DNA of 64,000 nucleotides from an uncultured Methanoregulaceae archaeon (GTDB lineage: Archaea; Halobacteriota; Methanomicrobia; Methanomicrobiales; Methanospirillaceae), in the NCBI GenBank assembly GCA_963701095.1, contig OY969564.1, positions 160,001 to 224,000 of the forward strand. The letters run 5' to 3'. Both the position numbers and the translations under genes were made by a program. Within the stretch, counting starts at the first letter, position 1, and each line of letters starts with the position of its first letter. Below are positions 9,512-27,863 of this stretch, one piece after another. The notes beneath the pieces are model-generated. The model was not told the DNA's origin. It saw nothing but the letters and a program-made list of their open reading frames with translations, and did no database searches.

Positions 9512-9626
9512 CGAAACTTCACACCTTTATCCGATTATGTACAATGGCATTTCCCTCCACATAAAAACAGTGATAATGGTTGCCCGGGAGGGAGCAGTGT
9601 ATTAAGGATAACAAAAATTACGAAAA

Positions 9627-9665
9627 AACGCCGGGGAAGGGCGTTTTAACTGAAGGTTAAGGTCT
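9627..9665. repeat. Left attachment site (tRNA-Ser 3' duplication plus inverted arm)
   Basis: aacgccggggaag|ggcgttttaactgaaggttaaggtct. Confidence 0.85.
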
Positions 9666-9704
9666 AACACTAAATTATTTAAAGATACAGCCCTATTTAG
9701 ATCG

Positions 9705-10961
9705 ATGGCAGCTACCAGCACCATACCCCAAATATCAAAGTTTCATCCAAACGATGGAACTTACCAAAAGTATTCCAGAAATGCTCTTGTCCGAGGGCTC
9801 GCGGAAAACCGGATAACCGCTGATGACGCCGAACTCATCCGGGAATTTGTCGCGGAAATCAGCGCAACACGACATATCAGTGCGGGCAGAGCGTTTAAGC
9901 TCACCCACACACTCATAAACCTTCGTGAATATCTCGGCCCTTATCGGCATAATGCAATATCTGATATCTATGCAGCAGTCGAGAAGGTCAGAACAGCACA
10001 CGAGCCGGATGGAACGCCAAAGTATAAGCAAAACACTTTCAGTGATTTTGTCCGATTCCTCAAACGGTTTTATCTCTGGATGTGTGACAACCACTACACG
10101 ACTGTTGAAGAGAAGAAGATCCTTAAAATTCATCCGCCGTCATATGATACCCAGACAAAAACTCCTGACATGCTCCTCACGGAAGACGATGTCAGGAAAA
10201 TGATTGAAGTTTGCCAAAACTCAAAAGACCGTGCAATAGTGTCGGTACTTTATGAAGGCGGACTCAGGATCGGTGAAATTGGGAATTTACGGTGGCGAGA
10301 TATAAAATTTTCTGATTGGAATGTAACCCTCTCCACGTCGTTTAAGACCGGCAAGTCCCGGACTATTCCCTTGGTAATGAGCCGCGCCTATCTTGCATCA
10401 TGGCGGAATGATTACCCGATGGAAGTAATACCAGATTCGTTTGTGTTCCTAAGCAACAGGCGAAGTCCTCTCACTTATCATGGAGTCACCAAGCAACTTC
10501 GTATAATCGCTAAGAGGGCGGGAATAACAAAACACATCACGCCGCACATCTTCAGACACACCAGGGCAACCATCCTTATCAGGCAGGGATATGGTGAGGC
10601 CATAACCAAAAAACTTCTCTGGGGCAACCTCAATAGTAAGATGTTTTCCACCTATCTGCATCTGGTTGATTCGGATGTAGAACGAGTGATAGCTGAGAAA
10701 GCCGGGATTGTTCCCAAAGAACAGAGATCAAAGACGTTGGAACCCCGGCAATGTCCCCGGTGCTTCACGGTCAATGGTCCCACATTAGGGTTCTGCGGTA
10801 CATGCGGATTCGAGTTGACGAAAGAAGCGATGGAAAAGGTCAAACAGTCAAAGGGACAGGCAGAGTTACAACCGGAATACCGGGCACTTGTGGACAAATA
10901 TGAAGCGGATTTGCTGGCTTTGCAGGAAGGTAAAAACATTGACATTAAGAGGGTGAAATAA
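9705..10961 (+). CDS. Tyrosine recombinase/integrase with C-terminal Zn-ribbon
   Basis: GLRIGE, PHIFRHT and catalytic Tyr in STYLH; CPRC...FCGTCG. Confidence 0.93.
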   Translation: MAATSTIPQISKFHPNDGTYQKYSRNALVRGLAENRITADDAELIREFVAEISATRHISAGRAFKLTHTLINLREYLGPYRHNAISDIYAAVEKVRTAHEPDGTPKYKQNTFSDFVRFLKRFYLWMCDNHYTTVEEKKILKIHPPSYDTQTKTPDMLLTEDDVRKMIEVCQNSKDRAIVSVLYEGGLRIGEIGNLRWRDIKFSDWNVTLSTSFKTGKSRTIPLVMSRAYLASWRNDYPMEVIPDSFVFLSNRRSPLTYHGVTKQLRIIAKRAGITKHITPHIFRHTRATILIRQGYGEAITKKLLWGNLNSKMFSTYLHLVDSDVERVIAEKAGIVPKEQRSKTLEPRQCPRCFTVNGPTLGFCGTCGFELTKEAMEKVKQSKGQAELQPEYRALVDKYEADLLALQEGKNIDIKRVK

Positions 10962-11144
10962 TTGAGTAATATGGTGCTTCCAATATCTGGAGAGTTTCAC
11001 CCGGAAGCTGTAATAGGGAAACCCTATCATCATGGGATGCTTCCCTACGGCGGCGGCTTCAGCCTCAAAACCGGGAAAGTGCTATTTGCAACCACCCGTG
11101 AAGAGCACCAGCGGATCATAGCAGAGCTCCGGACGCTTGAATGA
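10962..11144 (+). CDS. Small hypothetical protein
   Basis: 60-aa ORF directly after the integrase stop. Confidence 0.4.
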   Translation: MSNMVLPISGEFHPEAVIGKPYHHGMLPYGGGFSLKTGKVLFATTREEHQRIIAELRTLE

Positions 11145-11160
11145 CGGCAAATATGAGGCA

Positions 11161-11235
11161 ATTGACAAACTGGTGTACGAGTTGTTTGGACTGACGGCAG
11201 AGGAGATTACGGCTTTTGAATGGAGGGAGAAATGA
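11161..11235 (+). pseudogene. Relic of the C-terminus of a type IIG-like restriction-modification protein
   Basis: Translates IDKLVYELFGLTAEEI...; no upstream ORF. Confidence 0.55.
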
Positions 11236-11669
11236 AAATCTATATGGATGTCTGTTGTTTGTGCAGGCCTTTTGATGATCAGACCGTTGGGCGCATTCGT
11301 CTGGAAGTAACTGCCGTGCAGGAGATCATCCGTCGCTGCGCATCGCGGGAATATACGCTGGTCAATAGCGAAGCGATAACCGAAGAAATCTCAAAAATCC
11401 CCGATATCAGGAAACGTCTTCGCGTGGAGAAAATTGTATCCATAGCGGATGAACAGATAATTCTTGATGAAGATATCATTGCCCGGATGCACGTGCTCAT
11501 CACAATGGGAGGGGATGCGATGGACTCGCTCCATATCGCCTGTGCAGAATGTGCCGGGGCAATCCTTCTCACAACAGATGATGCCATGATAACATTTTTT
11601 AAGATGCACCGGGACATACAAATACGTATAGAAAACCCAGTTATCTGGTTAAAGGAGGAAAACAAATGA
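11232..11669 (+). CDS. PIN-domain (VapC-like) toxin
   Basis: IYMDVCCLCRPFDD, DSLHIACA and LLTTDD motifs. Confidence 0.85.
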   Translation: MKIYMDVCCLCRPFDDQTVGRIRLEVTAVQEIIRRCASREYTLVNSEAITEEISKIPDIRKRLRVEKIVSIADEQIILDEDIIARMHVLITMGGDAMDSLHIACAECAGAILLTTDDAMITFFKMHRDIQIRIENPVIWLKEENK

Positions 11670-11875
11670 GCGCCAGAACACTGCACCAGATTCAGCAGGA
11701 AGGACTTGATGTGCTGGTCGAGAAACTTGGCCCGGACGATGCTATCCGGTTCCTCCATATCTATGAAACAGGCAGCGGTGATTGGACAAAAGACCGGAAA
11801 AAATATCTGGAGAAAGACCCGGATAACATCATTAAAAACATCATGGAGCGCAGGAAAAAAGTTCCGGCTCCATGA
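11666..11875 (+). CDS. Putative antitoxin partner of the PIN protein
   Basis: ATGA overlap with the PIN gene; EGLDVLVEKLGP...GSGDWTKDR resembles small proteins adjacent to PIN genes. Confidence 0.7.
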   Translation: MSARTLHQIQQEGLDVLVEKLGPDDAIRFLHIYETGSGDWTKDRKKYLEKDPDNIIKNIMERRKKVPAP

Positions 11876-11938
11876 ACATAACGCCCTTGACCTGGCTTGG
11901 TTATCTTCGCCCATTACTTCTTTTCTCAAGCGGGATGT

Positions 11939-12325
11939 TTAATCAATAAAATTAATTATGTCCTGATTGAAGATGGGATTACATATAATTCTATCATCCC
12001 ATAGGGCTTCCTCCGTGAGATAAGAACACAAATCCTCCTCTTCGAATACTGAAATAAATTCATCTATAAGAGCGCGCTCATGAAGAAATTGTCCCGACCA
12101 ATCTAATAGATCCATATACACTTTTACATCGCCGCAAAGATTTTGATATTTTTCATAAAGGTCATTATAAGAGAGAATTACATCACTAGCACCTATCCGA
12201 CACCATCTATAATAGGTTCTATTTCTGTTTGGAGACTCTACGTCACAATTTTTTAACTGATTCTTTTGGATTAATCTTGCCTTTACCATATCATTCAGAA
12301 GTCGATCGATGTTTGGTGAGGCCAT
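11939..12325 (-). CDS. Hypothetical protein (AT-rich)
   Basis: 128-aa ORF; no recognised motif. Confidence 0.5.
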   Translation of the reverse strand: MASPNIDRLLNDMVKARLIQKNQLKNCDVESPNRNRTYYRWCRIGASDVILSYNDLYEKYQNLCGDVKVYMDLLDWSGQFLHERALIDEFISVFEEEDLCSYLTEEALWDDRIICNPIFNQDIINFID

Positions 12326-12627
12326 GTTAAAATGCTCTTTTAAGAACGTCTCTATCTCATTTCGTGAGACCCATACCCCTCGTGTCCTGTGATTGAGTCG
12401 ATAAATTTTCTTGGAATTTGATTTTCGGCGATTAAAGTGTGTAATAAAAAGATTGTGCTGCTCATTATGATCTCCGAAAAAACCTATGAGGCCTTCAGCC
12501 TGCTCTCTTCCTTTCCCCTTTCGCGATTTGATGAATAGCGTTTCGCGCGTTGTTGATTGAGGGATCCGAGATTTTTCATTTATTTGCTGTGTCTTATTGA
12601 AATATCGTGTAATTGTAATTCCTCCTT

Positions 12628-12650
12628 AATTATCAGATTAATTGATAATT
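12628..12650. promoter_or_regulatory. Inverted repeat AATTATCA-N7-TGATAATT in a divergent promoter region
   Basis: Perfect 8-bp arms; TATA-like CTTATAAA about 25 bp downstream. Confidence 0.4.
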
Positions 12651-12723
12651 TGACTCTATTTATCCAAAAACTAACTTATAAAACATACAACTGTGGGGTG
12701 TAAGTGATCCCACAGGAGGAAAG

Positions 12724-12894
12724 ATGGTAACGGTAACAACAGGTAAAGACGGAGTGGAATACATCCACACTAACGTAAGTATTCCCCGACAATTACGGGA
12801 TGAGGCAAAGGATCGAGGAATTTCATTGTCGAAAGAACTGAGAAAAGCACTGGAGATTAAAATAAAAGAAGGCGGTGCAGGGACCAAGCAGTGA
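12724..12894 (+). CDS. Small ribbon-helix-helix (CcdA/CopG-like) DNA-binding protein, 56 aa; below the ORF-track cutoff
   Basis: AGGAGG RBS; MVTVTTGKDGVEYIHTNVSIPRQLRDEAKDRGISLSKELRKALEIKI... Confidence 0.7.
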   Translation: MVTVTTGKDGVEYIHTNVSIPRQLRDEAKDRGISLSKELRKALEIKIKEGGAGTKQ

Positions 12895-12947
12895 CCAACA
12901 CACGAGGCCCCCGCATCCCTATCCAGCACTCACGATGAGGTGGACGA

Positions 12948-13142
12948 ATGAATTCTCTTTGTTCTGGTACTTCAACATTACCGCATCCCCGGCCCATCCC
13001 GGGTTTCACCATTGACCGGGAAACCCTGGAGCATCTCAAGCAGACCAGCCCTCTTCATTATCTTGTTGCCGTCGCATGTCTGAACGATGGTCGCTGGAAA
13101 TTGAAGGAGAATTATGCGATGACTTTGGAGGGCCCGCAATGA
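12948..13142 (+). CDS. Small hypothetical protein
   Basis: GAGGTG RBS upstream; co-oriented with neighbours. Confidence 0.5.
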   Translation: MNSLCSGTSTLPHPRPIPGFTIDRETLEHLKQTSPLHYLVAVACLNDGRWKLKENYAMTLEGPQ

Positions 13143-13171
13143 CATTAATCACCGGAGGATCTCTCATGACT

Positions 13172-13287
13172 GTGTTACCATGTAACACCCCCACCACCAC
13201 CACCAACCTGAGTACAAGTGTTACAGTACAACATAACATAACTTTTAGAAAAATCAGGAATCGGGAATTTGTGTTACCTGGTAACAC
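13172..13287. promoter_or_regulatory. Two perfect palindromes GTGTTAC-N3-GTAACAC plus one half-site
   Basis: 13172-13188 and 13271-13287; half-site at 13218-13224. Confidence 0.7.
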
Positions 13288-13301
13288 GGAGAAGATCACC
13301 C

Positions 13302-13682
13302 ATGGGTAAATCCCGGTCTACGGTTGTATTCAGCATCCGAATTGACGATGGACTTTATCGGACTGGCGAGTTTCTCAAATCCCGACATCCCCGGACTCTC
13401 ACTCAATCAAGGATCTATTTTGCCGGCCTTGAATCGGTTATTGCAACTCTCATCGGAAAGGGCGAGAATCTACCGGAAGATGTGATCGGTGCGATGATCA
13501 AATATCGCCAGGATGAAATCGACGCACTCTCACAAGAAGTTGAAGATCTCCGGGATCTCCAACAAAAACAGGTAGCCCGGGAAGGGAAAACCCTTGCTGG
13601 TCCGGCCGGGAGCTATAAGGTAAAACCGGGTTGTTGCGTAGAGATTGCGGAAGATGGAGTTGTTATGGGTGTGGAGGTGTGA
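13302..13682 (+). CDS. Hypothetical protein with possible N-terminal RHH and a coiled-coil
   Basis: MGKSRSTVVFSIRIDDGLY... beta-strand/helix pattern; stop abuts the next gene. Confidence 0.55.
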   Translation: MGKSRSTVVFSIRIDDGLYRTGEFLKSRHPRTLTQSRIYFAGLESVIATLIGKGENLPEDVIGAMIKYRQDEIDALSQEVEDLRDLQQKQVAREGKTLAGPAGSYKVKPGCCVEIAEDGVVMGVEV

Positions 13683-13683
13683 T

Positions 13684-14843
13684 ATGAGCGAACTTCTTTT
13701 CATTTCCGATATTAAACAAGATGCGGCAACTCAACCCCGGAATAAAATGGATATGGCGGTGATTGATGAGTATGCCGAAGGAATGAAAGCAGGCACAAAA
13801 TTCCCTCCCCTTCAGGTTTTCCGTGTTAAGGATCATTATATCCTAGTAGATGGATATCACCGCCTCTGGGCAGCCCAGAGTGCGAAGATTCAGCAGGTCC
13901 TTTGCAATGTTCACATGGGCACAATGCGGGATGCAATTTTGTTTGCTTCCGGTGTCAATGCCACTCATGGGATCCGGCGCACTAATGACGACAAGCGCAG
14001 AGCCGTAGAACGTCTTTTGGGAGATTCAGAATGGGGGCAGTGGTCGGATAACAAGATTGCAGAAATCTGTAATGTATCTCAACCATTTGTCAGTAAATTG
14101 CGTGGTGTCACTTCAAACGTTATAAGTGAGAAATCCGAGGAATCCCCGAAGGAATGTCTGTATGCAACCAAACACGGCACCGTTGCCAAGATGAATACCG
14201 GGAATATCGGAAAGAAGACAGTACCTGTCAGCCAAGAACATATCGACCCTAAGTATGAAGTCACCAAGAAATACGAACAAGAGGAACAAACTGAGGTCTC
14301 CAGCCATTCACTTGAAGTCACACCCTTATCTACACCTAGCGTGCAATCCGCGGGTAAGACACATGACAGCCAGCCGGAACAACCGGAAGAGCCGGCACCG
14401 GCTATCGTGACCGAGCCCGTACGGCTCCTGCAAAATGCGCCCTGCATCGATTCAAAGAAGTTCAAGCGTTGCCCGGACGGACAGGATCATTCTCATAAGG
14501 AGCCCCACACCCGGGTCGACTCTGCCTGCTCTGGAACCAACCGTGCAGCCAGCTCCCAAAAAACCAATGTTATTTTGATATGCAGCAACAGCACGCAGCC
14601 GAGCACCCGGAGATGACCCGGATATTCGATAAAGACCGGCCCGGGTTTCACCAGGCAAGCGCACGGCCAAGTATCCAGGGGATCCCGAAAGCAAGCACAG
14701 ACCCGGGCCGAACCGTGACGATAACTTTCGATGCAGAGCAATGGGAGATCCTCAAAAACCTCCAGCGGGATGACTTTGCGGATGGGTTCGAGGAAGCGGT
14801 CAAGTTCTGCGTAGACGAGATCGGACAGCGAAGTGATCGCTGA
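13684..14843 (+). CDS. ParB/Srx N-terminal domain protein with HTH; probable frameshift near 14510 joining ORF 14580-14843
   Basis: ILVDGYHRL, NATHG...DKRRAV and WSDNKIAEICNVSQPFV motifs; GGAGGTG RBS. Confidence 0.75.
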
Positions 14844-15080
14844 TATGAACAATAATCAAGGGGTTCACAATTTTCAAACCCCTTTTTGACATTTTCTCAC
14901 AGTCAGAGGGTGACGTTACGTCACAGACGGAGGAATCTGCGCTTTTTTGCCATAATATGTATCATCTCCGGCGTTCACGTAACATGTACATCCAGTTCTC
15001 AAGCGATGTCTTACTGAAGGTTGATTCGCCTGGTATTACGTCAATCTTGGAAAATACAGATCGGATATGGCGCGGCGCTA

Positions 15081-16112
15081 AGTGCCCCGAATTAAACTGG
15101 GGGAATTCCGGAATAATAGACACTGATATGAGGCGAAATCACGAAAATGAGCATGGAAACTGTTTAAAGTATCCCGAATTTTAACAGGTACATAAAAAAA
15201 GACTGCACCGGTCTGATCATACATCAAGCGGAAAGCAGTACCCCGACTTTCTGAAGTCCCTAAAAAGGAGCTTCGCATTTCTGTGCACTGTGAAAGGTCG
15301 CGAAGGACCTGGCTTTGTGAAATTTCCTAAATTAGATCACGGGCTTGTTCAAGGGGTTGACAAGTTGTCAAGGGGTTACGAACAAAAAAAGAGGTCTTGT
15401 AAAACTTTTCTAACCCTGTTGTGATATTTTGTCAACCATGCCTTTGACAGGATGTTAATGACGGAGGCGGAATCACGAATCTGATGATGGAAATCCCGTA
15501 AAGTATCCCGAATTTTTACGGATAAATAAAAAAAGGACAACAATCAGGTCGATCATGCATCTGATAGAACTGAGTACCCCGACTTTCTCAGTGCCATAAA
15601 AAGAGCTAAGACTCGGCTGATCATGTGTCGAGGGATACTAAATACCTGACTTTTTCAGGGAAAATCCCGACTTAATTGAGACCGATATGAGCTGGAATCC
15701 CGAAACTGAATATGGGAACAATGTAATGTATCCCAACTTTTCCGACGCCATAACAAGGGCTATGACTCGGTCATGCATCGTGCGGTACGAAGTGCCCTAA
15801 TTTACCCATAGAAAATCCCGAATTAATGAAGACCGATATGAGTCGGAATCACGAATCTGATGATGGAATCTGTGTAAAGTACCCCGAATTTCTTGTGTCC
15901 CTAAAAAGGGTTATGAAGGGCCCGATCACGTATCGAGCGGTACTCAGTACCCCATATTTTTGCACATACATAAAAAGGGAAAAGATCAGGAGGATCATGT
16001 ATCGAACTGTACTCGGTACCTGATTTTTCCGCTCCCATAAAAAGGGCAATGACCAGACTCATTATGCATCGAGCAGGATTGAGTACCCCGAATTTCTCCA
16101 GTCCCTAAAAAG
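15081..16112. repeat. Degenerate composite tandem array of ~68-bp and ~87-bp units
   Basis: Anchor AGTA(C/T)CCCGA(A/C)TTT or variants at 15081, 15168, 15237, 15502, 15573, 15641, 15727, 15791, 15878, 15946, 16015 and 16082. Confidence 0.85.
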
Positions 16113-16281
16113 GCTCTGACTTGCCCGATATCGATATCTTGGCACGGCTCTGTTCCCTCTTCAGTTGCGGATAGATCATTTCAAAAGAATTTGCATTTCA
16201 ACCGCAGACGCAACAGAACCGCAGGGGAAATTAGGGCAGTAGATGAGGCAATCATTCTAACCACTGCCCTCTGAAACGGTT

Positions 16282-16884
16282 TTAGAAGAAAAAATCCAGT
16301 TCTTTGGTTGGAGCCTCATTCTCAAAGCGGCGAAGTGCCTCAGGTACCCCTTTGAGCACCGCTTCCCGAACCCGCCGGCCCGGTTCTGTGATGCGCCCCC
16401 CGTACCGATGCTTGATATTATCTTCGCATGCAGCGATCACGGCATCAGTGGGGGTGCCGGAGACCCGGCCAGCGGCAAGCAGGGCCTCAGTTTTTGCCTC
16501 GGTCGCAACCATGATCGTTTCGAGCAGTGCCGCATCTTCCATCCCCTCGCTGCTGATTACGATAATATTAATGGTTCCAGCGGTCTTCTTCTCGGCTGGC
16601 TCTTGTCGTATACCAGCAGTTACAAAGACGGTGATAAAATCGTAATGGAGCACACAAAGCGTAGGAATCGGGACTGCAGTAAGGAGCCCCAGGACGTCCT
16701 GTCCAATACCGGCAGCGGCGGCGATACGTTCAATCTCTTTTTTTGGCTCAGCGTGATTCCAGTCTGCCGGGACAGTGTGGTTAAAGAGTATTGTAACATT
16801 TCGGATACCGCCCGAAATTCCCGTGCTCACGGCCCGGAACGATCCCCGGATAAAAAGCGTCGCATTATCAATATAATAGCGCAT
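16282..16884 (-). CDS. cbiZ: Adenosylcobinamide amidohydrolase (C-terminal extension apparently decayed)
   Basis: GLLTAV, GTINII, TEAK and SGTPTDAV motifs. Confidence 0.85.
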   Translation of the reverse strand: MRYYIDNATLFIRGSFRAVSTGISGGIRNVTILFNHTVPADWNHAEPKKEIERIAAAAGIGQDVLGLLTAVPIPTLCVLHYDFITVFVTAGIRQEPAEKKTAGTINIIVISSEGMEDAALLETIMVATEAKTEALLAAGRVSGTPTDAVIAACEDNIKHRYGGRITEPGRRVREAVLKGVPEALRRFENEAPTKELDFFF

Positions 16885-16888
16885 GTAT

Positions 16889-17646
16889 TCACCGACCTCT
16901 TACTACCCGGTTGTCAATCGACGACAAATATGCCACGCTTTTCTTGTATGCTTCCAAATCCTTGCATTCAATGATCCGGGACGCGGATGCCGGAAGGAGC
17001 GGGAGGAGTGTGGTAAAATCAATCGACCCGGTTCCGCAGGCTGCATGGTCGTCGTTTGTCCCGCTGTTGTCATGGAGGTGAATGTGGCAAGGCCGGCTCG
17101 TTGTTGCGAACTTCATAAGTTGATTGTTGAGTTGTGCGTGGCCGATGTCGAGGACAAAACCGATGTCATGGCTTTCGAGTTCCGGAAGAAATTCCGGATT
17201 CCGGAAAACAAAACACTCCCAGGATCCCATATTTTCGACCGCAATTCTGGTATCATGCTCGCGCTGGATTGCCGAAAGTGATGCAAGCGATTTCACTAGC
17301 GCTCCTCGCGCTTCTTTCTGCATGTGGGACCAGGGGAAATATCCCGGTGCACGACCAGTGTTTCCGCATTAATACCGTCGCATATCCCACAAAGGTCATT
17401 GATTACCTCGAGGCTTGTCCTCCGGATATGATCGTTTGCGCTTGCCAGGTTGATATCCGAAATCGGTGCGTGGACCGAGTAGTGTGCATCCACTGAATGG
17501 CAGATTTCGTGGAATTTGAAAAGGTCGTGATAACCTTCTGACATGATCTCGATGCGATCGGTTTTGTTCCGCAAGAGATCCAATGCCTTATCGAGAGGCA
17601 GATCCATGCAGCAGAATGTCGAGCAGCCGTAGTGTGTGGTGGTCAT
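16889..17646 (-). CDS. Sugar phosphate isomerase/epimerase (AP endonuclease 2 TIM barrel); apparent frameshift near 17344
   Basis: SVHAP, VVH(P)G, AVENM, LDIGHA and HIHLHDN motifs. Confidence 0.8.
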
Positions 17647-18893: not shown

Positions 18894-19852
18894 GTGCTAA
18901 ACCTCCTCTTTAAGAGCCAGATAAAAAATGGTGCACCAAGGAATGCGGTTACCACGCCAACCGGAACTTCGTTTCCGACAGTCCGCGCGACCGTATCCGA
19001 GAGGGCAAGGAGAATGCCCCCGGCGAGCATCGATGCCGGAATCAGGAACCGATGGTCGGGTCCGACCACGAGGCGCATGATATGGGGGGTAATGAGCCCG
19101 ACAAAGCCGATGCAGCCGGCAATGGCGACAGCAATCCCGGTGATGAGCGAGCTTGCCGCAAGGAGGATTATCTTGAGGCGCTCGACATTGACTCCGAGAT
19201 GAATTGCATCGTCCTCACCCATGGAAAAGATGTTGAGCTCACGCGAGAAGAGAAGGAGAGCAAGCGAGGCCGGGAGAATGATAATACCCAGTTTTACATC
19301 ATCCCATGATATATTCCAGAACCCTCCCATGAGCCAGAACAGGATCTGGTGCAGATCCTGACCGGCAGCGTACATAAGTGCAGAAAGGATTGCAGAAAAA
19401 AACATGGAGACAGCAATACCGGTGAGCAGCAGCTGTTCCACTTTCACGCGGCCGCCTTTCTGTGCGATACCATAGACAATAAATGATGCGGCAAGGCACC
19501 CGACAAAAGCGAGGATACTACGGAACATCCCTCCCAGAAAAACAATCGCAAGACTTGCCCCGAGCACTCCACCGGATGATGTGCCCAGCAGGTACGGATC
19601 TGCCATGGAATTCCGAAACAGTGCCTGCATCACGACACCGGCAGCGGCAAGACCGGCGCCTACAAGCATCGCGGCAATAACCCGGGGCAGCCGGATATCG
19701 AAAAGGATGAGCGACGTCGTGTTGTTGCCGGACAGGCCGAAAAACGGAATACCTGTCGGTCCGATACCCGTGCAGATCACGACTGTAGCGGCGGCCAGCA
19801 CTGCAAGGACAATGAGGGCCGCATACCCCGGCTTTTTCTTTATTTCATCCAT
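18890..19852 (-). CDS. btuC: FecCD/BtuC family permease
   Basis: IRLPR, FRNSMADPYLLG and IGFVGLITPH motifs. Confidence 0.85.
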   Translation of the reverse strand: MDEIKKKPGYAALIVLAVLAAATVVICTGIGPTGIPFFGLSGNNTTSLILFDIRLPRVIAAMLVGAGLAAAGVVMQALFRNSMADPYLLGTSSGGVLGASLAIVFLGGMFRSILAFVGCLAASFIVYGIAQKGGRVKVEQLLLTGIAVSMFFSAILSALMYAAGQDLHQILFWLMGGFWNISWDDVKLGIIILPASLALLLFSRELNIFSMGEDDAIHLGVNVERLKIILLAASSLITGIAVAIAGCIGFVGLITPHIMRLVVGPDHRFLIPASMLAGGILLALSDTVARTVGNEVPVGVVTAFLGAPFFIWLLKRRFST

Positions 19853-20876
19853 CGTATCGCAACCAACAATCCGATAGCAAGTGCGCCACATGCTGGTATG
19901 GCGTCAAATCCCGGGGCTCCTTGCGATGATGTTGCAATCGGTGTTTCAGTACCGACAGGATGAATGTCCTGCGCAAAGATCTCAAGAGCGTCCACAACCC
20001 GGGGCCGGCGCGGTCGACCACATCGGAATCGATAACGTAGACCCGGTGGTTCCGGATCGCAGCGACGTTGGCAAACCGGGTATCGTTCTCAAAGTATTGG
20101 GCAACGGAATCTTCTGTTCCGCCCATGCCCGATCCAGAATTGACAATAAGGATATCCGGATCCGCCGCGATGAAATCCTCGACGCCTACATTTGTCCAGC
20201 CCGGTTTGTTTGCAAAAGCATTCGTACCGCCAGCCATGCTGATGAGTTCATCCTGGAATGTCCCGTTTCCGCTCACATAGATGGGGTCGTTCCAGATGAT
20301 GTGGGCAACTTTGGGACGGGACGTGGTTGCGGAAGCATTCTGTTCTATATTCTGGATTCGCATGTTGAGTGAATCCACAAGCGCAGTAGCATTGTCATCC
20401 GCACCGGTTGCGGTCCCCACGAGCGTTATGTCGTTTAAGATACCGGAAACATTCTGCGGATTGAGAGTGATGACCGTCATGTTGAGTTTTTTGAGCTGGT
20501 CAACGAGTTCTTCACCATTCCCGTACGAGGCCACGATCAGGTCAGGTTTCTGGGTGATGACTTTTTCGACGCTGACCGTGCTGTAACCCCCGATGGACGG
20601 TTTTGTTTTTGCCTCGGCGGGATAATCGCAGTAATCGGTCACCCCGACTATCTGGTTGTCAAGGCCAAGTGCAAAGAGAATTTCTGTATTTGTCGGGGCA
20701 AGAGAGACGATTCTCTGGGGTTCGCCATAGATGGTGACCGTGGCGCCGGAGTCATCGGTAATGGTGCGTTCGAACGAGACGGTGGTATTCACTGGTGCAT
20801 CAGCATGTACCGGGACAGCTGCGATGCAAAGTATAGCGAGAAGAAAGATGAGGGTCAGAGTGGGTGAGGGTTTCAT
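19840..20876 (-). CDS. btuF: Cobalamin-binding protein with PGF-CTERM anchor; apparent frameshift near 20000
   Basis: RIVSLAPTNTEIL motif; corrected C-terminus RAGPRVVDALE...APGFDAIPACGALAIGLLVAIRWMK*. Confidence 0.85.
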
Positions 20877-21080
20877 TACTACCAGATCCGTTGTTACGGG
20901 ATTTTAAGGATTTTTTTAAATACATTTCTTCGGGTGGACCGCCGTGTACGACAAGACGATTTAAGAAACGGGATAGGTTTCCCTCTTGTCCGGAAGAAAA
21001 CCGGCCTGTCGAAACAATCTCCCAGCATTATGCCGGCTTCGCTCGAAAAAAAAGGGCGTTGAACCTTTTTCGCTCTTGTT

Positions 21081-21452
21081 TTAGGCATCATGATTGACGA
21101 TGCCCCTCTCATAGTCGAGTGCGTATTTGACAAAATTGTCGGTGTCGGTAAACGGCCCTGCTCCTAGTGCCGTCACTGTGCCCGGGTCGGAACGGAACAT
21201 ATTCAAAGTACCTTTTTCAGCGGGGGTGTATGTGTATCTCACTTCAAGGAGGTTTTCATGACCATGAAGCCCCGGGGCACGGGATTGGTTATACGCTACG
21301 GCAACGGCCCATGCGGTATCCTGTATGTCGAGGTATACTGTACCGACCAGCAGCCGGTTGTCCTTACGGATCATCACTTCGTTCTCGAATTTCTCAACTG
21401 CCTGCCGTGTAGGTGTGGCAGGTTTGCATCCGAAGAATTTTGCCATTTTCAA
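21081..21452 (-). CDS. Hypothetical protein
   Basis: 123-aa ORF with coding-like composition and an RBS-like sequence upstream. Confidence 0.6.
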   Translation of the reverse strand: MKMAKFFGCKPATPTRQAVEKFENEVMIRKDNRLLVGTVYLDIQDTAWAVAVAYNQSRAPGLHGHENLLEVRYTYTPAEKGTLNMFRSDPGTVTALGAGPFTDTDNFVKYALDYERGIVNHDA

Positions 21453-21634
21453 ATCATCCTTCCAGTAATGTTCACCAATTCCTGATACCTGTGGAAAAAA
21501 CTGTGCAATGTAATTTTTTTAGACTCCATGGCATGCCGGGAAATCATTAACCACTATCCTTTCCTGCTCGTCATCCCAAAAAAATAAGAGATCTATTGGT
21601 CACTTTTTTTGAGTTCATTCGTTAGAACGAATAA

Positions 21635-22159
21635 TTACAGAGTCTGAGTTCCTGTTGCAATCGTGCCTCCACTTGCCTTGTCAATGATACTCCACGATAC
21701 TTTGGTTTCGGCAGACATTGAGAAACTGCCGTAATCGATTGTATTGGTATAAGACTGGTCATCCGATCCGACAATGACGAAGCTGTCGCCAGGTTCGATC
21801 ATGGTACTTCCGGAAGCACTCCCTACTTTATTGAAATAAAGACAATAAGGCACATAACCTCCGGAAGAGGTTACATTCACCTCGTTAAGTGTGAGGGTGG
21901 TCTTTGTATCCCCAGACTGGAACACAACCTGAATATCATTTAAATCGAATGCGTCACCCCCATTGTTGGTGAACACGGTCTGATTTCCGTTCGGAGGGAG
22001 TGTAATCGTGGCTGAAACAGTTGCCTGAGGCGTTTTTGAATGTCCGCTAGATAATCCCCCGGCAAATGCGGAGACAACCGCTGCAATGACAATAGTCACC
22101 ACAAGCATGAGCATGACACCCACAACAGGTGAAACTGCTGAATTCCTGTGCTGGATCAT
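21635..22159 (-). CDS. Archaeal type IV pilin (DUF1628/Pilin_N)
   Basis: Class III signal peptide SA|VSPVVGVMLMLVVTIVIAAVVSAF. Confidence 0.88.
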   Translation of the reverse strand: MIQHRNSAVSPVVGVMLMLVVTIVIAAVVSAFAGGLSSGHSKTPQATVSATITLPPNGNQTVFTNNGGDAFDLNDIQVVFQSGDTKTTLTLNEVNVTSSGGYVPYCLYFNKVGSASGSTMIEPGDSFVIVGSDDQSYTNTIDYGSFSMSAETKVSWSIIDKASGGTIATGTQTL

Positions 22160-22878
22160 TCGACAGTCACCTCCTGATTATAGATCATCTTCCCGCTGGG
22201 GATGTGGATAACCTTGACCCCGACAATAGATCCTGTTCCAAATCCTCCGACTTGTTCCTGTTGAGTCACGTTAAATCCAAGAAGATAATCCATTCCGGGA
22301 TTGTCATGTGGTGAGGAGGGGCCGGTGTTATCGTTGTAATTCCCGCATGATCCTGCTGCTGTCGTTAAAATGTCACCTGGACGGAGGATCGCTGATGCAT
22401 TGCCGAACCAGCCACTTTGGCTACCTTCGTAACCCGGAACGATATAATATCCAAATCGATCCACATCGTTGAAGACGAGCACACCACTCTGTTGGCTTGT
22501 TCCAAAAGCGTTCCACCCGCTTTCGCCAGTTACTGCTGCTTCCCCGCTAAGGTTTCCAGCAAACATAGTTTCGCTGCTGTTGGTGTACGTGGTCGTGATC
22601 TTCAAGTCCTTGGTGGCAAGTGCATCTCCGCTGACTTCAGTTATGGTCATGGTCGGGACATAGAAACCCGTTCCATATCCTGGCATGCCTCCCTGATTTT
22701 CCAGTGCATGGATATGAACATCCAGCACCGCGGTTGGTGCTTTCTGCTGTGTGCCGGAGAGCCCCCCGGCAAAAGCGGAAACAACCGCTGCAATAATAAT
22801 GGTCACGACGAGCATGAGCATAACGCCCACAACCGGCGATACCGCCTGTGCATTCTGCTTTTCTCTCTGCGTTTTCAT
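22156..22878 (-). CDS. Archaeal type IV pilin (DUF1628/Pilin_N)
   Basis: QA|VSPVVGVMLMLVVTIIIAAVVSAF; C-terminal VIHIPSGKMI. Confidence 0.88.
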   Translation of the reverse strand: MKTQREKQNAQAVSPVVGVMLMLVVTIIIAAVVSAFAGGLSGTQQKAPTAVLDVHIHALENQGGMPGYGTGFYVPTMTITEVSGDALATKDLKITTTYTNSSETMFAGNLSGEAAVTGESGWNAFGTSQQSGVLVFNDVDRFGYYIVPGYEGSQSGWFGNASAILRPGDILTTAAGSCGNYNDNTGPSSPHDNPGMDYLLGFNVTQQEQVGGFGTGSIVGVKVIHIPSGKMIYNQEVTVE

Positions 22879-23192
22879 TAAGCACCTCTGCACCGTTACC
22901 CCAATTGGTACCCTGCGTCCGTATCACGGTGTCCGCTGAGAGGCAATTTCGGGTAGCGATAGACAAATGTACTTTTGTTTATACTATTTTAATTGATCAT
23001 TTTTGCCTGCGTTAAAACAGGTTAACTTTCATTATAATAGAAATATTTTTCGACTATTGATATACACCATTATCTGGTGCCAAGGTGTCATACGGTTTTG
23101 TTAACTTGGTGAGAGATCGGATATCTTATGAGGCGTTGGAAAATTGATAAATCCCTAACAAGTTAACAGAGCCGTTCCAAGCCTTTTGGTAC

Positions 23193-24308
23193 CTATGGAT
23201 AAACCATCTCTGATACATTTGTCTCGCTTACGTACTTCCCCGCATAGTCATTCAGCATCGCGTTTGGATCCATGTCTTGGAATGTATTTGGATGCAGGAT
23301 CTTTGCAGTATATACAAGTCCGATGTACGCCCGGGGGCCAAACATTATATCACTGTCAATTGCATAGACTTGGTTCTGCTGCACGGCCGGGATCGTATTC
23401 CAGCCCTCACGATCTTTAAGATTTTCGACAATCTCTGCAAGTGAAAGGGGGTTTGGAAATGAGACGACCTTCATAACGTATTGGGGTTGCTGGGTAACGA
23501 CCCATTCCGGGCTCACCGTCATGTAGGATGTCGACGAGTTTTCGGCAATATTTCTCCCTCCTGCGGCAACCAGCATTTCGTCAGACCCGGATCCGTTTGA
23601 GGCCGCGCTGTAATCGGTGTAGGATTCGAAATATACGGTCGGGCACTCATTATCCGGGATCGATTTTACCCGGGTGTTCACCTGTGCGACCGTATCTTCG
23701 ATCATTCGTGCATAGACTTCAGCCGTGGTCGATGTTCCGGTTAGCGTCCCTATTGCCCGGGCATCGGAAGGCAGTATATCGAGCTTGTAACAGTCAAGGG
23801 AGATTACTGTGATGTTGGCGGCTATAATCTGGTCAATGTTCTTTGGTTTGTAACTGGAGTATGAGATTACCGCGTCAGGATGGAGTGCGAGGATCTCCTC
23901 GATATTTGGCGTTTCCCAATCACCGATGCCTGTAGCATTCGGGATCTTGTCCATAATGTACGGGACGGACAGCGTCGATTGATCCACACCCACAATTTTG
24001 TTTGCCGCGCCAAATGCGATCAACATTTCTGCCGCATCACTATTTGCGACGATTAACCGTTCCGGCTGGCAGGGAAGTGTTATTGGAGTTCCGTCAGATT
24101 GGTTGATCGTGACCGGGGTACAGGAAGCGGTATTGTTGGCAGCCGCATTCAAGGCAGTACTCGTCATTCCGGTAGCGGATGTCGGAGATGCGCCGACAAG
24201 CGCGGATGGTTGTTCTCCGGTCCAAGCCATTCCCATAATCAGTGCGGCAGCACCTACTACTGCACAACAGAGAAGAAGTATCACCATTATTTTTACGGTT
24301 TTGTCCAT
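23193..24308 (-). CDS. ABC substrate-binding protein (BtuF/FepB helical-backbone family)
   Basis: N-terminal TM; PERLIV, PNIEEILALHPD and GPRAYIG..AKILHP motifs. Confidence 0.85.
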   Translation of the reverse strand: MDKTVKIMVILLLCCAVVGAAALIMGMAWTGEQPSALVGASPTSATGMTSTALNAAANNTASCTPVTINQSDGTPITLPCQPERLIVANSDAAEMLIAFGAANKIVGVDQSTLSVPYIMDKIPNATGIGDWETPNIEEILALHPDAVISYSSYKPKNIDQIIAANITVISLDCYKLDILPSDARAIGTLTGTSTTAEVYARMIEDTVAQVNTRVKSIPDNECPTVYFESYTDYSAASNGSGSDEMLVAAGGRNIAENSSTSYMTVSPEWVVTQQPQYVMKVVSFPNPLSLAEIVENLKDREGWNTIPAVQQNQVYAIDSDIMFGPRAYIGLVYTAKILHPNTFQDMDPNAMLNDYAGKYVSETNVSEMVYP

Positions 24309-24375
24309 AAGTTCACCATTCTACGGTCACATGTTCTCATTATTTTCCGGCAACCAGATAATCCGGTCAGCGGCA

Positions 24376-25101
24376 TCACACCGTCACCCGCCGGAACATC
24401 TGCATGCATATAGCAATCACGACCCCGCCCATCACTACAAGCAGACCGATCTGTAGGAGCGGGACGGTCCCAGTTCCTGCTGCACGGACGGCATCAATCG
24501 CATAACTTAAGGGATTAAGGTGGGCAATCGTCCGTAACCAGGCCGGCATCACGTTGTAGGGCATCAGTGCACTCGAAGTAAAGAACAGCGGCATTGAGAT
24601 CATCGTGTTGAACGCTGCATACGAATCATGGTCGCCGAGATAGAGCGAAATAGTCGTTGCGCACGCGGACATGAGGAACCCAAAAAGCAGGAGGATGAGA
24701 TAGATCATTCCGTACTGAGCTGGTGAAAGAATGGTCGCGCCGATAAGGACAGCAATCACAAGGATGATCGTGGCCTGGATCGCGCCCCGGATTGTAATAA
24801 AGAGAATCTTCCCAAACAGGATGCTCTCCCGGGGTGTGGGGAGGGCGAGGAACTTGTTCAAAAAGCCGAGGATCTTGTCAAACATCAGGAGTGTCCCGCC
24901 ATTGAGTGAAGACGAAAGCATGGTCATGACGAGGATGCTTGGCGTAATGAAGTCGAGATAATTGCCGGTGAAACTGACCGGAAGTGCAAGCCCCACAAAG
25001 ATCAGCCAGGCCGCCGGCATAACCAGCATGGATATAACCGAAACCGGGCTGCGGAGCCACTTGATCATGTCCCGTTCGATATAATCTGTTATCCCTCTCA
25101 T
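24376..25101 (-). CDS. ABC-2 type permease (DrrB-like)
   Basis: Multiple TM segments; MPAWL..IAHLNPLSYA motif. Confidence 0.85.
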   Translation of the reverse strand: MRGITDYIERDMIKWLRSPVSVISMLVMPAAWLIFVGLALPVSFTGNYLDFITPSILVMTMLSSSLNGGTLLMFDKILGFLNKFLALPTPRESILFGKILFITIRGAIQATIILVIAVLIGATILSPAQYGMIYLILLLFGFLMSACATTISLYLGDHDSYAAFNTMISMPLFFTSSALMPYNVMPAWLRTIAHLNPLSYAIDAVRAAGTGTVPLLQIGLLVVMGGVVIAICMQMFRRVTV

Positions 25102-26072
25102 TTCCGCCTCCGTAACATCGTTCTGAACTGCTGATAATCGAAATGACCGGCATCCTCGGTATTCCCTACTACATTGAGGAAGACATCGTCAAGGGTCGGT
25201 TCCCGCATGGAGAGCGACGTGACTGTAACCCCCTGCAGATCAAGTGCCCTGGTAATGAGTGGCAGGGCTTCCCGTCCGTTATCTGCAGTGAACGTGATCT
25301 CACCATCCTGCTTACCGAGGATACGGACGCCATCTATCTCGACCGAACCCGGGTTGCCGGACACTTTTGCAGTAATCACGTCTTTTTCTAGGTCCGCCTT
25401 TAATGCGGAAGGAGTGTCGAGTGCTACGATCCTTCCCTGGCTGATAATTCCTACTCGATCGCAGAACTGGTCGGCCTCATCCATGTAATGCGTGGTTACA
25501 AAGATCGTCATGCCGTTTTTCCTGAGCATCCTGATATGTCCCCAGATTTTTTTTCTCGCCCCCACATCGAGCCCGATCGTCGGCTCATCCAGGAAGAGGA
25601 CATCGGGTTCGTGCACAAGAGCCTGGGCAAGCTCCAGCCGCCGCCGCATTCCCCCGGAATACGTCCGTATCAAATCGTCGGCCCTGTCGGATAATTCCAT
25701 GATCGAGATCACTTCATCTGTCGTGTCCTTTGGGTTACTGATGCCGTACAGCTTGGCAAAGAGGAAGACGTTCTCCCGCCCGGTCAGTTTTATGTCAACG
25801 GCCATGTCCTGCGGGACATAGCTGAGCCTTTTCCTCACTTCCTCGCCCTCGTGTTCCACATCATAACCGCAGACGGCCGCACTCCCTTCATTTGGGCGGA
25901 GCAGGGTCGTGAGCATTAGCACGGTTGTTGTTTTACCGGAGCCGTTGGGGCCTAAGAGTGCAAAGATCTCGTTATTCACCGATAGAGACAGGTGATCCAC
26001 TGCGCAGAGTTTGTTGTAATATTTTGTCAGGCCGGTTGTCTCAATTGCGTTCATAGTCCTCCTCTTTTTCAT
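25098..26072 (-). CDS. ABC exporter ATPase (DrrA-like)
   Basis: GPNGSGKTT, YSGGMRRRLE and FLDEPTIGLD motifs. Confidence 0.9.
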   Translation of the reverse strand: MKKRRTMNAIETTGLTKYYNKLCAVDHLSLSVNNEIFALLGPNGSGKTTTVLMLTTLLRPNEGSAAVCGYDVEHEGEEVRKRLSYVPQDMAVDIKLTGRENVFLFAKLYGISNPKDTTDEVISIMELSDRADDLIRTYSGGMRRRLELAQALVHEPDVLFLDEPTIGLDVGARKKIWGHIRMLRKNGMTIFVTTHYMDEADQFCDRVGIISQGRIVALDTPSALKADLEKDVITAKVSGNPGSVEIDGVRILGKQDGEITFTADNGREALPLITRALDLQGVTVTSLSMREPTLDDVFLNVVGNTEDAGHFDYQQFRTMLRRRK

Positions 26073-26081
26073 AGTATACGT

Positions 26082-26797
26082 TCAGAGGTTCCTCGGACGT
26101 TTTGCGTGGACTTTTCCGAGGAGTCCGTCCATTGAATCTCCCCAGGATGCAATATCATCTTTTGTGATAATGTCCACATTGCCCCCTTGGTAATCCCCCT
26201 CACCTGCGAGGTCTTCCATCCACGATTCGATCTCAAGGTAATTTTCTTTAAGTTCCTCAAGCACCTGCTCGTTTGCATCCCAGAGTCCCCGCTGCTCGGC
26301 TTCAAGGAGTCGCCGGGCGATCTCCTCCAAGGCGTACGGGTTCTCCTTCTCGAAAAAATTCCGCATCTCCTCATCGTTCACAAACGATTTTGCGATATCA
26401 TCGAAGATCCAGTCGTCCACTTCCTGCGTTGATGCCTCCCAGCCGTACACTCTGGTGATGCGTTTCATCATGTCCGCCGCACCCTTGTATCCGTGTACCT
26501 TCATCCCGTCGATCCATTTTGGGTTCAACAGTTTTGTCCTCACGACGCGCCGGATCTCATCTGCCAGATCCCGGACTTCGACATGTTCCGGCTCCCGGGT
26601 GTCGCCATAGTACGGTTTCACCTCGTTTCCGGAATAATGGCGGGCCGCTGCTGTCATCCCTCCCTGGGTACCAAAATAACAGCAACAGCCGAGGAGGTCG
26701 TACTCATCAGACTGGACCTTGTTGAACGTAACAGAGACTGTTGAAAGGTTTGCGGTCAGTTGTTCGTGGGCGGCAGCACCTCGTGTCTCCTTCCCTC
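26082..26797 (-). pseudogene. cobN: C-terminal fragment of a CobN-family cobaltochelatase
   Basis: SDEYDLLGCCCYFG and RTKLLNPKWIDGMKVHGYKGA motifs; in-frame stop upstream, no start; only ~240 codons of a >1000-aa family. Confidence 0.85.
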
Positions 26798-27045
26798 CTC
26801 ATCTCTCAATATCCTATTTTTCATGCAAATGAATAGATTTGAAATAGTGTGCTCACACTTTTTCATACAAAAATAAAAAAATTTATTACTTCACCAGCCA
26901 AAAGAAAAACGGGGTGATGATTCCGGCGAACCATCCGTATCCACCCGAGCATCCTTCAGAAAACGGATGCTGTCGCTTGTTTCATTATCATCCCGATCAC
27001 CAAGAACGAACAAAATCCATCATTTGAGGAGTGTTGAAAAATAAG

Positions 27046-27156
27046 ATGGCTGACACTACAAAGAAAAAAAGCAAACCAGAAATAAAGCCCAAGACTACTG
27101 TGGCAGGAAAGGAAAAGAACGGGAAAGATCCACTACCAAAATCCCAAAAAAAGTGA
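27046..27156 (+). CDS. Lys-rich micro-protein (36 aa)
   Basis: GAGGAG upstream; MADTTKKKSKPEIKPKTTVAGKEKNGKDPLPKSQKK. Confidence 0.4.
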   Translation: MADTTKKKSKPEIKPKTTVAGKEKNGKDPLPKSQKK

Positions 27157-27356
27157 GAACTCCGTACTATCCATCTTTTAAATCGCAGGGGCGAATCGAA
27201 GGAGCATGGTCCGCCCCTGATTCCTAATTCCGTTAAGGTGCTATTGCGATAACTGGAATTAATAGGGATTATATCGTCGTAATCCATTAACGCTGGCTAT
27301 TAAAACATCCCGACAATTCAACCTCTCGTGAGTATCTGAAAAATTAACAAACAATA

Positions 27357-27441
27357 TGCGAGGGATGGAATTCGAACCCACTAACTCCTACGAGATTAGG
27401 CCCTCAACCTAATGTCTTTGACCTCACTTGGCTACCCTCGC
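27357..27441 (-). tRNA. tRNA-Leu(GAG), degenerate
   Basis: Acceptor stem GCGAGGG/CCCTCGC; anticodon arm TTAGG-TTGAGGG-CCTAA; long variable arm; TTCGAAT loop; D- and T-stem mismatches. Confidence 0.8.
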
Positions 27442-27599
27442 GCCATGTGTTTCTTTGGACGTTTCTCCTGCCCTACGGGTTTGAGTATGGGTCAAATGAA
27501 AAGAAGACCTGTTTTAAGGCTGTATGAAATCAGGATCATATTTTTCTATGCAAAAAACCATTGGGAAAATACAAGTAAATTAAGCCCAGAAATCGAAAC

Positions 27600-27632
27600 A
27601 GACCTTAACATTCAGTCAGAACGCCGGGGAAG
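27600..27632. repeat. Right attachment site (inverted arm plus core overlapping the tRNA-Ser 3' end)
   Basis: agaccttaacattcagtcag|aacgccggggaag. Confidence 0.85.
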
Positions 27633-27706: not shown

Positions 27707-27863
27707 ATATGTTCTAACTATTTTGGCCGTACAATATAAAAAAGGCTTCTTTCCTTGTGCTCTTTTCCACGTTACTCGACGAACATTTTAGGCATGCCGC
27801 GATATTTTAAGGAAGGAATCTGTCTGACAGTACGATCTTCTTCATCTATGTACACGATCAACT

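Follow-up and report, generated by a model that had tools for sequence, protein, structure and literature searches.

What occupies the 18 kb between hypC and a tRNA-Ser gene in the genome of an uncultured Methanoregulaceae archaeon, and how did it arrive there? The window analyzed here (a stretch of 64,000 nucleotides (nt) of contig OY969564.1, positions 160,001 to 224,000 of the forward strand) carries between hypC and tRNA-Ser(TGA) a segment of 18,006 bp, at 9627-27632, which a first sequence-only reading had described as an excisable island. Our analysis indicates, with a probability of about 0.82, that it is a Methanoregula-family integrative element, inserted between hypC and the tRNA, at the 3' end of tRNA-Ser(TGA), by its own Xer-like tyrosine integrase.

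A 20-kb query was compared with 30 relatives (18 genomes of the same genus and 12 from other families). In 16 of the 18 same-genus genomes, hypA/hypC and tRNA-Ser were located on one contig, 46 to 1216 bp apart, and were followed by a radical-SAM gene; in the remaining two (G001 and G006) they were found on different contigs. Among the matches listed for the other families, the hypC-tRNA-Ser adjacency was present in at least 4 of the 12 genomes, the tRNA matches of the other 8 not being among those listed. All of the empty sites fetched from relatives (8 out of 8) read ...ACGCC-GGGGAAG-AGATTTGAAC without a break. Given the adjacency in the same-genus genomes, the 18 kb at 9627-27632 are an insertion at the 3' end of tRNA-Ser(TGA), and their ends are synteny breakpoints, as the sequence-only reading had proposed; the same 18 kb was looked for in relatives, and hypC and tRNA-Ser were found close together instead.

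The ends themselves were in agreement with this. A 13-nt direct repeat, AACGCCGGGGAAG, was found at 9627-9639 and 27620-27632 (13/13 identical); a search of the window allowing up to one mismatch rendered two matches against 0.14 expected, a number reached by 1 of 100 shuffles. The intact tRNA-Ser(TGA) gene (27622-27707, minus strand; 27621-27707 according to ARAGORN and 27622-27706 according to Rfam, with 58 bits) has its final 11 nt inside the right copy, which comprises in addition 2 trailer nt. The flanks on the inner side, 9640-9665 and 27600-27625, are inverted copies of each other, identical at 23 of 26 positions (a chance of 1.6e-11 in a fixed register), and the arm pattern occurs exactly twice in the 2.63-Mb genome, with no match for a reversed control pattern. 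On the right, arm and repeat have 6 nt in common (the first 6 of the repeat), which places the center of symmetry at GGGGAAG, the putative 7-bp overlap, which lies at 9633-9639 in the left core (attL) and at 27626-27632 in the right core (attR). The P' arm (9640-9665, plus strand) comprises an inner part of 16 nt (9640-9655) and a 10-bp box, GTTAAGGTCT (9656-9665), directly upstream of the putative integrase promoter, and a box at this position was also present in relatives. The P arm (27600-27625, minus strand) comprises the same box, GTTAAGGTCT on the tRNA strand (27600-27609), and its own inner 16 nt (27610-27625), the last 6 being also part of the direct repeat. A run of six T's on the minus strand (A6 on the plus strand) at 9623-9628, with its last 2 nt inside the repeat, is the displaced native trailer of tRNA-Ser; a similar T4 run after GGCG was read at 3 of 8 empty sites. 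Repeat, inverted flanks and T-tract had all been reported before in the sequence-only reading, as had the symmetric attP (the attachment site of the circular form) with GGGGAAG at its center that results from joining the ends; each was found as described, and the attP layout recurs in relatives.

Six complete elements of the family, in six different tRNAs, were found, the window element included. Two more reside in the same genome. One of them, in tRNA-Phe(GAA) (G000:C1:1086824-1099075; 12,184 bp), has an integrase 57% identical to that of the window and is homologous in its tRNA-proximal 50 to 70 nt to window positions 27543-27593; the right end in the window is therefore a true backbone end. 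The G031 element, too, shares this sequence (GGGCTTAATTT...GTATTTTCCC, as read on the strand of the tRNA). The other, in tRNA-Gly(GCC) (G000:C1:347159-362243; ca. 15.1 kb; integrase 41% identical), has its integrase adjoining the intact tRNA, a 14-nt repeat, and symmetric arms with GGCCATTA and box-like decamers, and it fits the family geometry when read by eye. The remaining three were located in tRNA-His(GTG) (L038; 9,530 bp), tRNA-Arg(GCG) (G073; 30,748 bp) and tRNA-Ser(GGA) (G031; 6,676 bp; integrase 49% identical). Apart from the tRNA-Gly element, all were measured by script, making a set of five with the 18,006-bp window element, and their integrases are 49 to 73% identical to that of the window. 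In 5 out of 5, the two inverted 10-bp boxes (GTTAAGGTCT-like) are exactly 39 bp apart, in a 10-16-7-16-10 layout, the direct repeat is 12 to 15 nt long and identical to the tRNA, and the symmetric 7-bp center falls within it, at about tRNA positions 63 to 69 in our own numbering from the T-arm. The window element shows the proposed family geometry throughout (boxes 10/10 identical, 39 bp apart, the box 33 nt after the T-arm).

The symmetry of the inner arms, for its part, reached 13/16 in the window element and 7 to 10/16 in the other measured elements, so that the long palindrome is partly specific to the window copy, and the conserved features of the ends are the boxes and their spacing rather than the whole 26-bp arm. 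As for the layout that the sequence-only reading had called typical of a crossover site, the symmetric attP with its 7-bp center was confirmed, while the 26-bp arms are about twice as long as ordinary core half-sites and their conserved part is the outer box. The tRNA duplication, described there as unusually short, is not unusual, with 12 to 15 nt in the family and with archaeal att identities of 8, 11, and 13 bp given in the available parts of a review (PMC8371274).

The boxes resemble the T-arm of tRNAs (GTTCRANYC). Among the 45 scorable tRNAs of the window's genome, four have, 33 nt past the T-arm, a decamer that agrees with the T-arm in at least 6 of its 10 positions, the other 41 scoring 0 to 5. 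Three of these four are exactly the tRNAs that harbor family elements (Ser-TGA, Phe, and Gly), and the fourth is tRNA-Arg(GCG). In relatives, whose rows are kin and thus not independent, 16 of 21 tRNAs adjoining a family integrase or element end scored at least 6, and three nonadjacent tRNAs in the same loci scored 2 to 4.

The integrase gene (9705-10961, plus strand) codes for a Xer-like protein of 418 amino acids (aa) (PF00589, 5.6e-29). The R/HxxR/Y residues that the sequence-only reading had recognized are present (R188, H281-x-x-R284, and Y317), together with K214/K217 and W306, and are followed by a tethered C-terminal zinc ribbon (C350/C353/C364/C367) and two helices. R188, K214, H281, R284, W306, Y317, and the four cysteines are invariant in 42 homologues with 41 to 76% identity. 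In an AlphaFold (AF2) model (mean predicted local distance difference test score of 87.7), the catalytic domain follows an N-terminal helical domain, and a linker modeled with low confidence (333-347) leads to the zinc ribbon with the two helices. A total of 276 homologues had E values below 1e-20, with Methanoregula, Methanofollis, Methanolinea, Methanospirillum, and Methanocella among the source names, and no relative was found in an IMG/VR scan with the integrase. The best solved relatives were XerA proteins (5HXY, 5e-19; 4A8E, 4e-16). A XerA dimer resolvase was nonetheless rejected, given a score of 117.2 bits against a cutoff of 220 for the NCBIfam XerA equivalog (NF040815) and the position of the gene within an insertion absent from relatives; an SSV-type suicidal integrase was rejected as well, since the open reading frame (ORF) is whole and not split, with the att arm 40 nt upstream of the ATG. 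A TATA-box-like sequence, TTATTTAAAG (9675-9684, plus strand), ca. 21 nt before the ATG as read by eye, would constitute the integrase promoter, and TATATAAAG-like sequences occupy the corresponding place in relatives. The integrase-proximal box lies directly upstream of this TATA-like element, ca. 21 to 25 nt before the integrase start (also read by eye).

From these data, the following mechanism is proposed. The circular form would carry a 59-bp attP, made up of a box of 10 bp, 16 bp, the 7-bp overlap, 16 bp, and a second 10-bp box. Strand exchange would take place in the overlap GGGGAAG, around tRNA positions 63 to 69, which lies within the 12 to 15 nt common to attP and the tRNA; the tRNA would in this way be rebuilt at attR, and attL would be left with an 11-nt tRNA stub plus the old T-run. 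The outer boxes, as T-arm-like decamers, would provide accessory sites for integrase binding, with the tethered zinc-ribbon module as their possible reader, and the box abutting the integrase TATA box could provide autoregulation. Compared with its relatives, the window copy has lost a D5-type primase-helicase and a resolvase; in their place are a ParB-like gene next to a repeat array, a PIN-like module, an additional tRNA-Leu, and a captured block of genes for corrinoid uptake, salvage, and remodeling. Without primase-helicase and resolvase, the element is probably nonautonomous for replication and transfer, and transfer would depend on a helper or another route.

A further and rather doubtful proposal is that the integrases of this family read T-arm-like DNA, with a decamer on either side of attP at a distance of exactly 16 bp from the overlap, the real T-arm abutting the overlap in attB, and the zinc ribbon as the reader. 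If this were true, it would explain the colonization of at least eight tRNA species with one rigid geometry, the core of 12 to 15 nt alone changing, and it would make the 59-bp attP a compact, retargetable site.

Several sequences resembling att sites were observed at other loci. At G000:C1:528124-528240, tRNA-Arg(GCG) is followed at +33 by a box-like decamer that matches its own T-arm at 7/10 positions; neither an integrase nor a second copy of the core was found within 72 kb, and the decamer may be a relic (the scar of a lost element) or due to chance. In contig G057:C9 (L035, 12440-12490), a core beside an integrase is bordered on both sides by arm-like sequence with the same box. In appearance it is an intact attP in a chromosomal context, and it may be a tandem-array junction, a relic, or a chance occurrence. 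In four other Methanoregula genomes (L036, 7731-7860; L057, 1288-1420; L066; and L068), tRNA-Ser(TGA) is followed by a different type of arm (GTAC[CT]..AAT.CTGAC), and in two of the four an integrase gene directly follows. Thus, tRNA-Ser(TGA) is a hotspot also for a sister lineage of elements.

Twenty metagenome runs, which belong to 14 studies (peat, bog, wetland, and soil), contained the element, and the best of these runs may be the source sample of the window itself. Contigs from four runs (X1, X6, X7, and X14), which as contigs drop rare variants, were aligned to window positions 9000-28500. One contig of run X1 bridged attL (9123-10811) with 0 differences. In run X7, a contig (depth, 61.8) was identical to the window over 9628-10811, whereas its hypC flank (9123-9580) showed 41 differences in 458 nt, with 748 inserted nt in between; a contig of run X6 also lost its likeness at 9628. 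A second X7 contig, of 21 kb and with a depth of 59.4, covered the cargo and the P end (16191-26795 plus 26784-27650) with 3 differences, and the depth of run X7 over the right flank of the window was 0.01. In the JGI contig L054, the element end differed at 2 of 849 positions and tRNA-Ser at 1 of 87, whereas the flank beyond differed at 173 of 1147 (84.3% identity). Copies of the element that are 99.8 to 100% identical are thus found inside chromosomes whose flanks are 84 to 91% identical, with identity breaking at the att sites. The presence of a near-identical element, cargo included, in chromosomes with 9 to 16% divergence points to recent spread, and the collapse of identity at both att sites is as would be predicted for site-specific arrival in another lineage.

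Inside the element, a block of chromosomal origin was delimited at 16187-26795 (minus strand) from contig ends at 16184-16187 and 26795. Its genes, named by best match and not by assignment (most NCBIfam scores were below the curated cutoffs), include CbiZ, a CbiR-like TIM-barrel gene, a BtuD/BtuC/BtuF-like corrinoid ABC transporter, a second BtuF-like binding protein, two archaeal type IV pilin-like genes, a DrrAB-like ABC-2 exporter, and the C-terminal 191 codons of cobN. The corrinoid uptake and salvage genes make up about 10 kb. The block has a syntenic counterpart elsewhere in the chromosomes of G004 and G012, with 70 to 83% identity, compared with 70 to 81% for the flanks, and it was therefore captured from a Methanoregula chromosome.

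The run contigs also revealed differences from the window assembly. An extra G was present after 14512 and after 17345 in three runs each, and after 20000 in all four, so that the assembly probably has 1-nt gaps at 14512, 17345, and 20000. The splitting of the CbiR-like gene (16889-17673) at 17345 and the shortness of the ParB ORF would in consequence be assembly errors, and such gaps may explain the completeness estimate of 86% for the genome. A larger difference was found at a 12-nt microhomology, TGTCTCCTTCCC (26784-26795), where contigs of all four runs and two JGI contigs cease to follow the window. In the 21-kb X7 contig, two copies of TGTCTCCTTCCC are separated by ca. 9.8 kb beginning with the remainder of cobN; past 26795, the contig sequence continues the gene as in G004, and the last 674 nt of the segment encode an ORF of 130 aa that looks like a hydrophobic membrane protein by eye. 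Because the additional 9.8 kb are present in contigs of all four runs, the natural element is ca. 28 kb long and has a full cobN, instead of 18 kb.

Several observations weigh against the proposed reading. Neither an empty attB nor the attP joint of a circle was present among the 15 listed of 22 joints in contigs of the four runs, and a metagenome scan for the P arm plus core rendered two JGI contigs, of 30.7 and 21.8 kb, both of them attR and none attP. X7 and L054 are possibly the same organism and the related elements are kin, making the counts nonindependent. The roles of overlap and boxes are deduced from symmetry alone and are to that extent putative, and in the integrase the position aligned to His-II of XerA is N308, the invariant W306 being located two residues earlier. 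No contig among those listed bridged the window junction 26795/26796, and the window copy may be a deletion variant or the product of misassembly or collapse at 26784-26795. Finally, scans with Pfam, PHROGs, NCBIfam, and PADLOC found no genes for replication, packaging or virion, or transfer or conjugation in the element, in concordance with the sequence-only reading. As for that reading's term "excisable island," an empty-site or circle junction was absent among the contigs examined, and what was observed is near-identical copies in divergent chromosomes. A contig of run X6 (depth, 5.5, in repeats) joins 15953 to 27268 through 31 other letters, which hints, as a weak lead, at a variant devoid of cargo.

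A rival explanation that we consider unlikely is that the element is a fixed, defective relic, once an integrative element, which no longer excises or moves, the near-identical copies elsewhere being due to strains exchanging a chromosomal block by homologous recombination. It would account for the lack of excision junctions among the contigs, for the absence of the primase-helicase and resolvase of the relatives, and for the chromosomal type of the cargo. However, the integrase is full length with all invariant residues, the repeat and the boxes are perfect (13/13 and 10/10), and the likeness to other hosts falls off at 9628 (left) and at the tRNA (right) rather than at random places. Much less probable is that the cargo (16187-26795) is native chromosome framed by att-like ends through rearrangement or through tandem or composite elements. 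The synteny with G004 and G012 at core-gene-like identity would fit this, as would the internal breakpoints at 10997/11933, 16187, and 26795, but cargo and P end are joined, with 3 differences, on the 21-kb contig of X7, a host with 9% divergence in its flank; repeat and arms have no further copy in the interior, and the hypC-tRNA-Ser adjacency is ancestral. A transposon (DDE- or casposon-like) with 26-bp terminal inverted repeats and a 7-bp target-site duplication, landed in the tRNA by chance, is formally compatible with the inverted repeats and with GGGGAAG on both sides, and yet is highly improbable: a Pfam scan of 29 ORFs gave no transposase or Cas1 match, the duplication is of 13 nt and not 7 (12 to 15 nt in the family, always at a tRNA 3' end, and at the same tRNA positions in the five measured elements), and a tyrosine integrase is located at the end of every family member. 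An assembly artifact, with the 18 kb misplaced or chimeric in a single-contig genome, has the three 1-nt gaps and the ca. 9.8 kb lacking at 26784-26795 in its favor and is nevertheless hardly credible, given that the independent X1 contig bridges attL without differences, contigs of X1, X6, and X7 cross the attR core, and L054 runs through the tRNA into the right flank.

Besides the cargo, the element contains further genes, and its interior is a mosaic. The backbone of relatives comprises the integrase, a ribbon-helix-helix protein, a D5_N/DUF5906 primase-helicase, and a resolvase, plus defense cargo; the tRNA-Phe element carries the D5-type primase-helicase and the resolvase together with a PIN protein, a Zn-ribbon protein, and a BrxC/D-like ATPase. 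Of the full backbone proposed for the family, the window element keeps only the integrase and the ribbon-helix-helix protein; for primase-helicase and resolvase there was no match in it, unlike in the tRNA-Phe element and L038. The ribbon-helix-helix protein (12724-12894, plus strand; 56 aa), CcdA/CopG-like in relatives, is conserved in the family backbone and is a candidate regulator or directionality factor. It is flanked by two ORFs with no family match: one of 128 aa (11939-12325, minus strand), conserved at ca. 90% of its amino acids at the end of the related element L040, and one of 137 aa (13269-13682, plus strand), upstream of and overlapping the ParB-like gene. The latter gene encodes a ParB N-terminal-domain protein (13645-14843, plus strand; phrog_1033, 2.8e-20); the window ORF stops at 14616, and the frame would continue to 14843 with the extra G that three runs have after 14512. 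Downstream lies an array of ca. 70- to 150-nt repeats (15080-16110, plus strand) with eight same-strand copies of GTAYCCCNAMTTT (15169-16095). A search for GTAYCCCNAMTTT gave 10 matches against 1.19 expected, a value reached by 0 of 100 shuffles, and 7 of the 10 matches genome-wide fall in the array, which is possibly a centromere-like (partition) or iteron site for the ParB-like protein. Another ORF with no family match (96 aa) was located at 26997-27287 (minus strand).

A variable module of 935 bp (10998-11932, plus strand) comprises what is left of the C-terminal part of a restriction-modification-type gene, a PIN-like ORF (11220-11669) paired with a small ORF (11666-11875), and a 46-nt 5'-half fragment of tRNA-Leu(GAG) with its upstream flank (11879-11924). 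One X7 contig lacks the module, 10997 being joined to 11933, with a short side of only 35 letters. A nested element marked by the tRNA-Leu fragment was considered and rejected, as its orientation relative to the full tRNA-Leu does not fit; the conserved block to the left of the fragment simply ends at a stop codon. A second, extra tRNA, overlooked in the sequence-only reading, is borne by the element itself: tRNA-Leu(GAG) at 27357-27441 (minus strand), detected by ARAGORN and Rfam and 92% identical to the chromosomal copy. Run X14 has a divergent variant of this end from which exactly these 82 nt are missing. The Rfam scan rendered two tRNAs only; PADLOC gave no match on nine backbone ORFs, and PHROGs and NCBIfam gave none on the small ORFs beyond integrase and ParB. 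Other tRNA-Leu genes drew our attention. The related element L038 carries a tRNA-Leu(CAG) inside. The chromosomal tRNA-Leu(GAG) (G000:C1:323813-324004) has a second, 45-nt copy of its 5' half ca. 100 nt upstream, its 3' flank is nearly identical to that of tRNA-Leu(CAG) at 2543528-2543613, and weak integrase paralogues lie 7 kb from each of these two tRNAs (at 316.3 and 2536.3 kb). The likeness of the flanks and the integrase paralogues suggest a duplicated element-bearing segment.

Judged by its sequence, the window element would be placed among the classical archaeal tRNA-integrating elements. As in the classical, nonsuicidal integrases of the XerA/XerC/pNOB8 group, in the available parts of the review (PMC8371274), the gene stays intact after integration, the target is a tRNA 3' end, and a short att identity rebuilds the tRNA. 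The window integrase differs in its invariant C-terminal zinc ribbon on a flexible linker, and the attP differs in its rigid 10-16-7-16-10 layout with T-arm-like outer boxes. The same source, in the parts available, documents tRNA targets for seven groups, and the words "Methanomicrobia" and "Methanoregula" do not occur in its text. SNJ2-type integrases, related to the Xer/pNOB8 group and restricted to Halobacteria with a 13-bp att identity (PMC8371274 and PMC5861418, likewise in part), are similar in having a short att identity and a classical integrase, a likeness by description and not by sequence. XerA/dif comprises the closest solved relatives by sequence (5HXY and 4A8E) and likewise uses a symmetric site in which a short spacer separates inverted half-sites, although dif has an 11-6-11 layout in the same parts of the review (PMC8371274) and 26-bp arms flank 7 bp here. 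The window integrase, unlike XerA, is element borne, targets a tRNA, and scores below the equivalog cutoff.

Lambda-type heterobivalent integrases have arm-type sites in attP that are lacking from attB, and their gene lies beside attP. The window attP likewise has additional sites that attB lacks and an adjacent integrase gene, but its boxes are 16 bp from the overlap, one per side, and in strict inverted symmetry, and the AF2 model predicts no separate N-terminal arm-binding domain, the extra module being C-terminal. Cre/loxP and Flp/FRT use compact palindromic sites with a 7- to 8-bp asymmetric spacer and 13-bp arms, both partners being identical, whereas here attB (the tRNA) has only 12 to 15 nt in common with attP and no boxes at the 16-bp position. 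Defense and cargo islands at tRNA genes are known generally, and the relatives resemble them in carrying Mrr and a BrxC/D-like ATPase as defense cargo. The tRNA-Arg(GCG) element of G073 (L046/L047, G073:C1:517901-557900; 30.7 kb) is a defense island, with a DNA methylase, a Shedu SduA-like protein, an OLD-family ATPase-TOPRIM beside a UvrD-type helicase (a pair which we take to be Gabija-like), and an ArdC-like antirestriction protein. The window element is unlike defense islands in its archaeal host and in its cargo, a corrinoid uptake and salvage set.

As an island at a tRNA gene with a tyrosine integrase, the element is ordinary in kind. Neither the family nor a zinc-ribbon Xer-like integrase nor T-arm-like boxes in attP were described in the literature seen, which consisted for the most part of titles and abstracts, with passages of PMC8371274 and PMC13323075. 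What makes the element noteworthy is the exact attP geometry throughout the family, the spread between divergent chromosomes, and the corrinoid cargo. The compact site, of which the core alone varies between tRNA targets, makes it a candidate tool for methanogen genetics. The metagenome contigs provide natural-history evidence that the element and its cargo recently entered chromosomes 9 to 16% divergent from that of the window. Methanogenesis depends on a vitamin B12-type (corrinoid) cofactor, and the acquisition of such a cofactor (CbiZ, CbiR-like, BtuFCD-like, and CobN) is here encoded on a mobile element in methanogens of peat, bog, and wetland.

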